Virus record (IMG/VR): IMGVR_UViG_3300042691_015370 | Coordinates: 32,001-96,000 of that record | From: a virus | Reading direction: 5' to 3' (one strand) | DNA length: 64,000 bases | In this document: positions 49,501 through 56,997 of the stretch, in pieces | How positions within the stretch are numbered: position 1 is the stretch's first letter | How the letters are laid out: each line of letters begins with the position of its first letter | Translations under genes and position numbers: made by a program | Notes under the pieces: generated by a model | Told to the model about the DNA's origin: nothing | Database searches by the model: none | What the model saw: only the letters and a program-made list of their open reading frames with translations

Positions 49501-52500
49501 AAAACGACCGCCACCGCCGTACCCACCATAGCCGCCATAGCCGCCACCGCCGCCGTATCCACCACCCATTCCGCCACCAGCAGCAGTGACAGGATCTGAC
49601 AAACGACCAGTTCTTCTAAACTCTTCATCAAGAATTTCTTGATCAGAAAGGTTAAAGCTCTTCTTTAATCTTTCGTACTGAGCGGCAGCTTGAGCTTGTT
49701 GTTGAGCAACATCTTCTGGGCTACCAGCACCGGGACTGAACGCCTGACCCAGAGCGCCGTATGCTCTTGTAGCTGCCTTCGCTCTTCTCTCTTGCCACCT
49801 AGCAGCACCCTCGTCTGCACTCAGTTCACCTGAAACGACGTCATCCCAAATGTCGGCACTCTTGCCCTCTGGGAACAGTCCTCTGCGAGCAGCAGCTTTT
49901 TGTCTTGGGGTTAAGGCTTCCCAATTACCATCACTCAAGTTACGCGCAGCCTGACGCTGGTCAGCAGCGAACTTGGCCTTACGGGCAGCAGCGTCAGACT
50001 CGGCTTTACGATCAGCATCTGCCGTTTCATTTTCGGCCCGAGCACGACGACGTTGCTCTGCTTTCTCCTGTCGCCGTTTTTCGTTCGCTTCGGCAGCCGC
50101 AGCAATAGCGGCTAGACGATCAGCTTCAGTGGCAGGACCGACAAAAGGAGTGCCACCACCATCAATAACATTAGTACCTGCACCCAGTGCTCTGCGCTCT
50201 GCGAGTCTAGCTCTTCTTGCTTCAATATATGGGTCTACTGGAGGTAGAGCAAGAGGCTGTCGTGGCCCATAAAGCGGAATTGGCACACCAGTACCCGGAA
50301 TGTCGGTACCAATCATTAACTCTCTAGCAGAGAAGCGGCGCTGTTCAGGGGTAACTCCCGGCCCCAAGGCAAGAGGTGTTGCAGATCTACCGAGTGCCTC
50401 AGCAGCGGTTGCAGCAGCATCAGTGCCCACAGCAACTGCATGCATCTCAAGAGCCGCCGTGTCCGCAAGGAGAGCTAGCCTCAGTTCTGATGCAGTAGCT
50501 GTAAGGGAATCTAATTCACTGACAAGAACGGCTCCAGAGACTCCCGTGGCAGTAGTACGAGATCTTGCTACTTCATTAGCTCTTGTGAAAATAGCGATCT
50601 GTTCTGGTGTGGCTTCTCCCGAAGCAACTAGGGGTCGCAATTCAGCAAAGTACTCACTTGGAGATAGCTTTGACTGACTCGTTGGGAACAGTGCGTCGGG
50701 ACCACTTAGTCTGTCACCTCTACCAACAATAATCCCCTGATCTTCAAGGATCTGGCGATAAGCTGGATCTAGACCCAGCATATTCTCCATACGATGCTGA
50801 GCTTCGTGCAGGGCTGTAGCCGGTCCAGCGCCGAGAGTTGCTGCACCAGCAGCACCAACCTCACGACTCGTGCCTCCACTAGCTACCCAATCGTCAACAC
50901 CAGCAATCATCTCTGAGTTCATTACCCAGCGACCATCACCCGTCATTGCCCCTAGACGGCCACGGAACTCATCGCTTAGTTCTGAAACAACCTCGGTTCT
51001 TAGATCACCCAGCAGGTTAGGTGCCCCTGCTTGCATAGAACGCATGTATGCTTCAATACCAGATGCGCTACCCAAAATGTCAGGACGACGAGGGGTGCTA
51101 TAAGCGTCAGAACCGGGACCAAGCTCTGGCGGGCGCTTGCCTTCTTGACTTCTGCGAAGTTCTTCCTCTACCTGCTGACTAATTACCTCTGCACTTGGCA
51201 TAAGGCTAACTTGTCTTGGGCTTGGCCCATAAATGGTGCGGTAACCATCATTTCCATAGTAATGAGACAACTTACTGGTGCCCGTCAGGCCCCAGTTTTG
51301 AGACACCGCCTCTGTGTCGTAAAGCGATCCGTAGCTTCCAGACTTAGCATCTAGCCATTCATTATAGGCTCTAATCATCCTTTGTCGAGTACGAAGCGAG
51401 TGATCATATATGTTGTCACGGAACCCTTCAATCCACTGTACATCACCCTCGTCCTCAAGCTGCATTTGAACGAAGTTGATAGCATCAGAAGATTGGGTTT
51501 TACGGTATCTATTGGGACGACTGAATGCTGTCTCACCAGAACCAAGCTCGCCCCTGAAAGGTGGTGGGAAGAGTTCGCTATATGAGAAGGCTCCCCTGAA
51601 GGGTGGTGGCTGTGTTCTGTAGCTTGGCAGTGGCGGAGGAATAGGTCCAGTGTAAGGTGGTAGTCCCCAACCGGGGCCTGAGTATTCGGGACGAGTAACT
51701 CCGGGCAGAGAACCAGTATAAGGAGGCGGTGTTAAAGCTTGCTTATTAGCATCCCATTGAGCTTCAAAGATCTTGTACTGAGCCTCGTCGTCGGTCAAAA
51801 TGCCACGACGAATCATGCGCTCAATACTTGCGGCCGCTGTTACACTAGAATCACGAAGCCGCTCCAAAGACTCTCGCAAATTGGCAGGTACCTCAAGCCG
51901 ACCAGCAGCTAGCCTCTGCTTTTCTGTCCATTCGCTACTATCATCAACGTCGGAACCAGCAAACAGCTTGTTCCACATGATGTCTTTGACACGCTTCTGT
52001 TGAGCAATCTGCTCGGCAGTGCCACGACCAACATCGTAACCAATAACCTCTGCACTAGGTACAGGGCTAAAACGAGATACCCGTCTTGGAGAAGGACCAA
52101 TAACGTTACCATATAGATCATAAGAAAGACCTATAGTACTACCGCCTAGCCCTTCACGAGCCAATCTTTCTTGAATTGCTCCTTGTCGCTGACGGCTTCT
52201 AGGGAAAGCTTCTGCAATTTCTGCACCCGGCTTATTCTCTGTTAGCATGAAGGGCAATGCAGCGTCTTCTATAGCCTGCATGGCAAGGAAGTTCATGTAG
52301 TCAGAAGACTGCGGCCTATTCGGAGTGCTGAAGATAGTGCGGCCCGTGCCTAGAGCAAGCTGCTCACGCACGAAGGAGTCAGTATCAAGACCATACAGCC
52401 AGTCTTTAAGCTCCCTGTTACGAGGACTCTTGCTCAAAACTTGTCCGAAGATATCACCCTCATTGCGAGAAACAACATCACGAACATTCCGAGCAGCCAA

Positions 52501-56997: not shown

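Follow-up and report, generated by a model that had tools for sequence, protein, structure and literature searches.

A recurring junction peptide in a giant phage tape measure protein and the embedded zincin that may read it as a cleavage code

Why would one short peptide recur again and again along the half of a giant phage protein that databases leave without annotation? This question was raised by a stretch of 64,000 nucleotides (bases 32001–96000, hereafter the window) of the phage genome IMGVR_UViG_3300042691_015370, which is 144,887 bp long and also encodes a DNA polymerase, a primase-helicase, an exonuclease and a recombinase. A single open reading frame (ORF) of 13.4 kb on the minus strand of the window encodes a protein of 4466 amino acids (aa), here called P0001. 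Whole-length scans of P0001 against Pfam and PHROG returned no match. When the protein was scanned in pieces, aa ~2588–2790 matched PF10145 PhageMin_Tail (46.4 bits, cut-off 33.2, E 5.4e-12) as well as phrog_28 and phrog_1272, both described as "tail length tape measure protein", and aa 1–2216 had no Pfam match at E<=1 and none in PHROGs. Because of these two results, the gene, as judged from its profile matches, encodes a tape measure protein (TMP) whose N-terminal half cannot be annotated. The peptide recurs within this half, and we propose that it may be a cleavage code read by a zincin of the same protein.

Junction peptides and the units between them

We found seven copies of the peptide L-G-x-G-x-x-A-[YF]-S-x-P and one half-copy, all of them in the P0001 ORF (Table 1). 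They delimit an array of ~1,700 aa with seven exchangeable modules, which has a conserved N-terminal region ahead of it and the tape-measure core behind it, and each module begins with L-(A/G)-x-(G/P)-x-x-x-(A)-[YF]-S-x-P. The pattern G.{3,5}[YF]S.P occurred 8 times in P0001 versus 0.21 expected, and the maximum among 5000 shuffles was 3. In a motif-blind clique search of mutually similar short windows, the junction peptide was the top recurrent word. A leave-one-out position-specific scoring matrix (PSSM) gave 8.4–35.3 bits against a 95th-percentile null of 8.7, with six of the seven sites clearly above it and junction 1 borderline, while with the full PSSM the seven sites scored 32–41 bits and no other place in the six-frame ORFs of the whole genome exceeded 12.1 bits. 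Applied to all six-frame ORFs of at least 80 aa in the genome, the motif expression and the PSSM marked the TMP only, and no head, capsid or scaffold protein.

A preliminary description of this DNA had listed eight linker strings, had called them diverged in DNA and conserved at the protein level, and had left their significance to motif discovery. All eight were recovered in the one minus-strand ORF within a few bases of where they had been placed, and the unsupervised search, the shuffles and the PSSM agreed on the significance of the motif. The DNA of the junctions (45 nt) has a mean nucleotide identity of 44%, and three codons (AGT, AGC and TCG) are used for the invariant Ser, so that the view of conservation at the protein level stood as well. 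The helix RLxxQLxR, said to follow three of the linkers, was seen at aa 682, 1069 and 1319, after junctions 2, 3 and 4; two of these three cases are paralogous kinase modules, in which it is the N-terminal helix of the kinase cassette, and it also occurs in the kinases of a relative, P0003. The linkers had further been described as lying between otherwise unrelated modules. BLAST among the junction-delimited units detected two paralogous pairs only, M3/M4 (34%) and M5/M6 (37%), and the remaining pairs shared just their first 12–14 residues; the description thus held for most pairs and failed for these two.

The seven units consist of two predicted zincins, two units with a protein kinase fold and three without an assigned function. 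AlphaFold2 (AF2) was run on aa 1040–1580 with a six-row alignment and gave a usable model for M4 alone (aa ~1330–1549; predicted local distance difference test score, pLDDT, 62–86). The top 50 structural matches of this model were all protein kinases (Z 11.6–9.3, ~180 residues aligned). Junctions 4 and 5 were modelled as coil (pLDDT 34–43) immediately outside the kinase fold, with a helix following each. A model of M6–M7 from a four-row alignment (pLDDT 41) was too weak for a fold search; it puts all three local junctions in coil, which we counted as weak support. PDB sequence searches with M7, M2 and M3 returned no match. The C-terminus of M5 has proline-rich repeats (PPPYTGS, LPPYTGP, PPPFRGA and PPPFRGE; aa 1757–1817, window 51547–51729, minus strand) directly before junction 6.

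Private spellings and module exchange among relatives

A HMMER search with aa 663–1862 against 1.84 billion representatives found two giant proteins, P0002 (4213 aa) and P0003 (3639 aa), as well as four short kinase-like proteins that stand alone. Eleven more giant proteins came from a search with the C-terminal region, bringing the total compared to 14 including P0001. The core and the C-terminus are common to all thirteen giant relatives (2680–5020 aa), with 36–80% identity to P0001 in the core domain. The N-terminal region of P0001 is 56% identical to that of P0002 and 52% to that of P0008, and this homology stops at aa 492, before junction 1; its segment aa 329–416 is present in array-less relatives too. 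A word-indexed homologue search with the array region returned nothing among near or shorter lengths, and the IMG/VR and JGI metagenome contigs held no relatives. GTDB genomes held none either, and so gave no prophage relatives and no host clue.

The PSSM of the P0001 junctions found no site in any of the relatives. Four of them, all from metagenomes, have a junction peptide of their own (Table 1), each found de novo or far above shuffles; for those of P0002 and P0003, 0.001–0.006 copies were expected per shuffle versus 4 observed. At least three orthologous joints carry the spelling of the host protein, not that of the module. The joint after the shared RWQQENALQNVARQ reads LTPGRNAYSSP in P0001 and LPGPEVYNRP in P0002. 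At the joint before the M4-type kinase, P0001 and P0002 both have ERLALP, which continues as GASTQYSDP in the former and as APEVYNQP in the latter, and the two kinases of P0003 have TFQGK. The joint before the last zincin exists in four versions, DAYSTP, QVYNRP, DTFQAK and PLYSTS. In a maximum-likelihood tree, M4 was sister to the P0002 kinase (support 99/98) and not to its neighbour M3. Since M4 groups with the P0002 kinase and their joints differ, the spelling of a junction goes with the protein that contains it and not with the adjoining module.

Gene conversion or recent duplication was rejected as the cause of this uniformity, based on nucleotide identities of 44–62% and varied synonymous codons in all three loci with DNA. 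On the contigs L001 and L002 of relatives, the junction codons vary for Leu (CTA/CTT/TTG), Arg (AGA/AGG/CGT) and Ser (TCT/AGT), with a nucleotide identity of 56–62%. The likeness of the motifs tracks the C-terminal tree, in which the sisters P0001 and P0008 share [YF]S[ST]. All versions have one residue class in common, and no other: an aromatic or hydrophobic residue with Ser, Asn or Gln after it. Because the peptide is uniform within a protein and different between proteins, without homogenisation of the DNA, it is, on this comparative evidence, under protein-level selection by one common reader per lineage.

The array-bearing proteins were cut at their junctions and the resulting units compared all against all. 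Homologous units aligned near end to end (for example, M4 aa 21–238 of 244 with a P0002 unit aa 25–246 of 251), and the junction-delimited units of the relatives hold one Pfam domain each, namely GNAT (P0002 and P0009), PolyA_pol with its RNA-binding part, or DUF7178. The position of the junctions at the predicted module edges, which the preliminary description had also claimed, was confirmed in this way, one pair of edges by the moderately confident M4 kinase model and the rest by homology limits.

These edges are also where the proteins differ in content. P0011 and P0013–P0015 align with P0001 at aa 329–416 and then from aa 2494, so that the array appears as an insertion of ~1,700 aa matching aa 494–2216. 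P0017 and P0018 are ~93% identical and differ in the position of one zincin cassette of ~300 aa (aa ~467–767 in P0017 versus ~1223–1507 in P0018), which moved together with its two flanking junction-like peptides; it starts with TDLLGLGPGRFAEK, ends with SGLGPTSDAFGT and joins the flank directly after DAFGT. This movement suggests that the protease and its sites are a mobile unit. The peptide GLGPTSDAFGT of the distant relatives P0017 and P0018 is close to junction 7 of P0001 (ELGPGSDAYSTP), and because of this resemblance the P0001-type spelling is probably ancestral. The length of the core is fairly constant (about 1,500–2,200 aa), and the N-terminal extension spans 767–3,126 aa. Judged from these alignments, it is exactly at the junctions that modules have been inserted, lost or relocated; the earlier suggestion of a module-insertion site is borne out, given that insertions, swaps and moves all break there.

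Three further observations concern the relatives and the start of the core. The stand-alone proteins P0004–P0007 (188–471 aa) are homologous to the kinase cassettes of the TMP, with invariant G..EQ..A, D-x(4,5)-N and GF..ID, and therefore the cassette also exists as a free gene. The gene call of P0009 is N-terminally truncated (L002:5400–6612, plus strand): the stop-to-stop frame has 5,098 aa, begins MAGADTWLIDVNLDTSG and is homologous to the N-terminus of P0001, from which a true length of about 5,090 aa follows; its first junction lies after the conserved N-terminal region, as in P0001. The string LALPPxxPY with an Arg-rich helix marks the core start in P0001, P0002 and P0003 and has a tandem duplicate in P0002 at aa 1515–1580. 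It may be the ancestral joint where the array grew.

Table 1. Position of the tape measure gene, its junctions and its predicted modules in the window, and junction peptides of the relatives
Feature	Residues (aa)	Window coordinates	Strand	Basis or remark
Giant TMP gene P0001, 4466 aa		43597..56997	-	Single ORF, TMP profile matches, 13 giant relatives
Conserved N-terminal region, upstream of array	1–493	55519..56997	-	Homology limits
Junction 1, QLTPGRNAYSSP	494–505	55483..55518	-	String position; borderline in leave-one-out PSSM
Junction 2, ALGAGQTAYSTPR	663–675	54973..55011	-	PSSM 38.5 bits
M2, predicted zincin cassette; HEAGH (54196–54210), then PSNYSRATPYELTAE	HEAGH 930–934	53842..54972	-	Motifs, hhalign
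Junction 3, LAIGMPRDAYSTPS	1053–1066	53800..53841	-	PSSM 38.0 bits
M3, kinase-like cassette (HGDGHWKN...IDY)		53092..53799	-	Paralogue of M4; 43–44% identity to P0003 kinase unit
Junction 4, LALPGASTQYSDPS	1303–1316	53050..53091	-	AF2: coil, pLDDT 34–42, between two helices
M4, protein-kinase-fold cassette		52360..53049	-	AF2 model and structural matches
Junction 5, LALGTGRTIFSTPNR	1547–1561	52315..52359	-	AF2: coil, pLDDT ~40, directly after kinase fold
M5, ends in four PPP[YF]xG repeats		51550..52314	-	Paralogue of M6
Junction 6, ELGSGETAFSRPNR	1817–1830	51508..51549	-	PSSM 34.0 bits
M6, short paralogue of M5		51127..51507	-	BLAST between units
Junction 7, ELGPGSDAYSTPRR	1958–1971	51085..51126	-	Top PSSM score, 40.6 bits
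M7, predicted "anchor" zincin; HEAQH (50794–50808), then GPDALFPTSQSKLSPSEYFAE; last unit before core	HEAQH 2064–2068	50374..51084	-	Motifs, homology
Half-junction LALGPGVT, without the aromatic-Ser-x-Pro half	2209–2216	50350..50373	-	Below PSSM threshold
Junction-like LALPPVDPY, core start	2249–2257	50227..50253	-	Invariant P-L-A-L-P...Y in P0001, P0002, P0003
PhageMin_Tail / tape-measure core domain		48628..49236	-	Pfam and PHROG matches
P0002 junction LPxPEVYN[RQ]P	545, 783, 918, 1169			4 copies
P0003 junction [ST]FQ[GA]K	421, 566, 831, 1046			4 copies
P0008 junction LALPxG[TS]xxxFS[ST]	806, 1092, 1359, 1657			4 copies; also YSTS at 2030 and 2342
P0009 junction [FYL][SA]NAAR				6 copies

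A candidate reader of the junctions

From what has been said, the junction peptide is, by its pattern of conservation, a functional, selected recognition element. Considering what might recognise it, we looked at the zincins. The two putative zincins of P0001 have HEAGH (aa 930) and HEAQH (aa 2064), each then followed by P-[ST]-x-[YQ]...E-x-x-A-E, with the E-x-x-A-E 45–60 aa downstream, and HExxH zincins are the only protease signatures in aa 1–2216, where a MARTX-type cysteine protease domain is absent (no Pfam match at E<=1). An M7-type zincin occupies the same last position before the core in P0002, P0008 (HELVGH) and P0009, and P0003 has GGPAVFPSKY...AELIAE with the same GP-A-[LV]-FP-S signature. 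In all five array bearers, the unit that immediately precedes the core is a zincin, and these zincins belong to one family (HExxH or HExxxH, then P[ST]xY...ExxAE). Profile comparison with hhalign united the "anchor" and "cassette" groups of zincins (probability 83%, E 9.7e-6). Among the 14 proteins, zincins occur in all seven that bear junctions (HExxH, and HExxxH in one), including P0017 and P0018 with a single zincin cassette and junction-like peptides on both sides of it, and the seven zincin-less relatives (P0010–P0016) have neither an HExxH nor a junction array.

We therefore consider that the zincin of the TMP itself may read the junctions as private cleavage sites and would thereby release effector modules; in our judgment this proposal is evenly balanced between right and wrong. 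A protease fits best because a zincin accompanies every junction array. The anchor zincin, last before the core, would recognise the junction peptides and cut the chain into modules, and the second, cassette-type zincin may take part in the cutting. The last zincin would stay attached to the tape-measure core, since no canonical junction follows it; downstream of it come the half-motif LALGPGVT and, 40 aa farther on, the conserved LALPPVDPY. In siphophages, the TMP leaves the tail ahead of the DNA. The released units are for this reason presumed to be delivered effectors, which would act in the host after ejection of the TMP, and the cut would come either during tail assembly or after ejection. 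The preliminary description had offered a protease site, a packing signal and an accretion scar side by side. A selected recognition element with a zincin in every array fits the first of these, and a purely passive scar is unlikely because the peptide changes in concert within each protein without homogenisation of the DNA.

Several points weigh against cleavage by the embedded zincin. The concerted change establishes a common reader but does not establish that this reader is a protease. The scissile bond is placed purely by inference: zincins usually select a bulky hydrophobic residue at P1', and an aromatic or hydrophobic class is common to all versions, because of which the cut would most likely fall just before the aromatic residue. 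After a cut at junction 1, the core would no longer be joined to the conserved N-terminal region. The assignment of the zincins rests on motifs and on profile comparison among the family's own members; Pfam (including its polyvalent-protein models), PHROGs and PDB sequence searches gave no match for the zincin modules, and their ESM Atlas neighbours (Wss1-like, ATLF-like and LPD1/LPD23) scored 0.83–0.85, below 0.9. A zincin-like MPTase (metallopeptidase) has a three-stranded sheet, then the HExxH helix and a further helix that supplies a Glu ligand. The weak model of M7 (pLDDT 41) has the order strand-strand-helix(HExxH)-helix(E), and as a model it is unusable. Moreover, the five array bearers form one clade, so that the association of zincin and junctions amounts to one or two evolutionary events, not seven. 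The INPHARED phage collection, searched with DNA and protein, contained no relatives and so no related isolate. Finally, the virion RNA polymerase of N4, ArdC and TraC1 have metallopeptidase (MPTase) domains, yet they are transferred unprocessed (PMC5512222).

The sites could also be cut by another protease, either phage-encoded, such as a head-maturation protease, or of the host envelope or cytoplasm, and the zincins would then be effectors against host proteins or the cell wall. MPTase domains have indeed been proposed to be effectors themselves (Iyer et al., PMC5512222), zinc peptidase motifs borne by TMPs are common and usually thought to attack the envelope, and the metallopeptidase of gp96 of phage P23-45 is described as "characteristic of many TMPs" (PMC10770324). 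However, a general head-maturation protease is disfavoured because the rest of the 145-kb genome has no ORF with the motif, and the relatives' own motifs occur in none of the other ORFs of L001 and L002, TMP neighbours included. A conserved host protease would not lead one to expect different motifs in close relatives that are 56–75% identical in their conserved parts, and the zincin-less relatives have no junction array. We consider another protease improbable as the reader.

About the same low likelihood, in our opinion, attaches to a signal for docking or handling without proteolysis, in which a tail assembly chaperone, the tube lumen or the N-terminal region would bind the joints to keep the modules ordered, unfolded or threaded. 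Concerted evolution needs just a common reader, and folded domains of 25–40 kDa need handling to fit into a tail tube, as is generally known from the size of the lumen. Junction-like strings also occur where TMPs contact their partners, at the core start (LALPPVDPY) and, in weak form, at the very C-terminal end of relatives (ALGTGRNGYGQRR, a non-significant 8 bits). Nevertheless, it is not evident why a docking signal should accompany a zincin or lie on both flanks of a mobile zincin cassette, short signals strictly at domain edges are typical of polyprotein sites, and no candidate partner was found, the small ORFs upstream of the TMP being without family matches.

On the other hand, the peptide might be a passive linker or accretion scar, that is, a flexible G/P/S/T-rich connector with a helix N-cap that was copied when cassettes were inserted and has no specific reader. 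The insertions, the swaps and the one translocation all break at junctions; the ~1,700-aa array is an insertion relative to P0011 and P0013–P0015, the cassette of P0017/P0018 moved with its flanking peptides, the N-terminal half ERLALP travels with the M4-type kinase, and AF2 shows a helix right after the Pro of junction 4. A scar, however, should be inherited with its module, while the joints of one protein resemble each other and differ from their orthologues in other proteins, and this without homogenisation at the DNA level. Generic linkers also keep no invariant aromatic-Ser-x-Pro core scoring 32–41 bits. This origin likewise seems unlikely to us. Chance recurrence or a compositional artefact, for which the Gly/Pro/Ser-rich composition of the region speaks and nothing more, is so improbable after the shuffle tests, the leave-one-out PSSM, the genome-wide scan and the independent recurrence of analogous motifs in four relatives that we set it aside.

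Other candidates were rejected on their residues or distribution. Sortase recognition was dropped because the strings read LALPxG in place of LPxTG and the motif is variable. For 2A-like skipping, for inteins and for Ser/Thr autoproteolysis, the versions of the different lineages conserve no residues that would match. Phosphorylation sites for the embedded kinases were discarded with P0009, which has junctions and no BLAST-detectable kinase cassette. The C-terminal LGLPTVYEIRR occurs in all 14 proteins, zincin-less ones included, and was treated as a structural motif; the wider form N[ML]P[ST][ST]LxLPT[LIV]YE[IVA]RR (aa ~4392–4407, window 43600–43800, minus strand) is kept in 14 of 14 giant TMPs. 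The junction-like ALGTGRNGYGQRR[FY] in the last 15 aa of several relatives is not claimed as a junction (8.0 bits versus the null threshold of 8.7).

The surroundings of the TMP gene are alike in the window, L001 and L002, the order being an ORF of 262–288 aa, an ORF of 74–103 aa, the giant ORF, and then ORFs of 126–144 aa or one of >1,400 aa. None of these neighbours had a family match. Downstream of the TMP in the window, an ORF of 1,795 aa (37394–42781, minus strand) has no PHROG match and no junction motif and is probably a distal tail or central fibre protein. An ORF of 847 aa (61199–63742, minus strand) lies upstream of the putative head and tail genes that precede the TMP, and tail fibre and tail spike PHROGs match its first ~70 residues only (E 8e-8). 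Inside P0001, a low-complexity Gly/Tyr run (GGGMGGGYGGGGGYGGYGGYGGGG, aa ~2476–2501, window 49495–49572, minus strand) stands just before a hydrophobic segment and the PhageMin_Tail core, and a Gly-rich run ahead of the core is kept at the same place in relatives.

Known systems and meaning

The closest comparison is with polyvalent proteins of phages and conjugative elements, which combine two to fifteen globular domains of disparate function in one polypeptide and in which a zincin-like MPTase is the commonest hub domain, sometimes in several copies and with HExxxH variants, and for which autoprocessing was proposed (PMC5512222). P0001 is likewise one giant polypeptide of disparate enzymes among late virion genes, with kinases and predicted zincins here and GNAT and a PolyA_pol-type nucleotidyltransferase in relatives. 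Its array is multi-domain, and P0001 is itself a virion tail protein, with a tail-fibre-like N-terminal domain encoded by the upstream 847-aa ORF. The difference is that Iyer et al. (2017) mention no "tape measure" and no "linker" and define no cleavage motif (PMC5512222), whereas here the array lies inside a TMP and its joints carry an explicit motif that co-evolves within a lineage. Full-text searches on TMP together with polyvalent protein, or on polyvalent protein together with cleavage sites, returned no account of a junction code.

Among TMPs, gp96 of Thermus phage P23-45 has 5,002 aa, with a functional N-terminal virion RNA polymerase, a metallopeptidase and membrane domains (PMC10770324). 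It resembles P0001 as a giant TMP with an enzyme in its N-terminal part; the virion brings this enzyme along, and it works in the host when infection begins. Unlike P0001, it has a single cargo enzyme, and the paper (Nat Commun 2024) reports no module array, junction motif or processing (PMC10770324). No sequence relationship between gp96 and P0001 was found. The TMPs of mycobacteriophages with their Rpf and peptidase motifs, and T5 pb2 with its zinc peptidase, are ejected into the envelope with one or two small wall-degrading motifs. They share with P0001 the presence of enzyme motifs inside a TMP, but have no arrays of cytoplasmic-type enzymes with a repeated junction peptide.

Two further systems are similar in principle. 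The MARTX toxins of Vibrio and relatives contain exchangeable effectors whose short linkers are cut after delivery, after Leu, by an embedded cysteine protease activated by inositol hexakisphosphate. They are like P0001, by analogy, in having an array of effector domains in one giant polypeptide, short linkers and a repertoire shuffled between strains. However, they are secreted bacterial toxins aimed at eukaryotic cells and use a cysteine protease, while the candidate here is a zincin; the comparison is thus one of analogy, not of membership. Cleavage codes such as Q/G of picornavirus 3C, L/I-x-E of T4 gp21 and S/A/G-x-E of phiKZ-like phages are read by chymotrypsin-like or assemblin-like proteases, genome-wide on replicase or head proteins. 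Here too, a short motif stands at product boundaries with one viral protease, and both drift together between lineages, but the motif of P0001 is confined to one tail protein.

What would be new in P0001 is a polyvalent protein with predicted zincin processing that lies inside a TMP and has an explicit, lineage-private junction code. The prediction of 2017 that polyvalent proteins are cut by zincins had no defined cleavage code; the candidate described here is short, explicit and repeated seven times, and four differently spelled versions in relatives match it, so that the prediction becomes directly testable. The sole experimental precedent of an enzyme borne by a TMP, the virion RNA polymerase of P23-45, is extended to an exchangeable array that includes kinases, acetyltransferases and nucleotidyltransferases, which suggests the tail lumen as a delivery route for early anti-host effectors. 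More tentatively, and with more doubt than confidence, we hypothesize that giant siphophage TMPs are plug-and-play injection racks, in which a fast-evolving, lineage-private pairing of anchor zincin and junctions would free any cassette that has landed there as a host enzyme, and in which the zincin with its flanking sites would itself be mobile; large tailed phages may in this way share a general polyprotein strategy, hitherto undescribed. If the code is lineage-private, it would explain how modules are shuffled freely while their release is retained, and it would help to place module boundaries when giant phage proteins without database matches are annotated.

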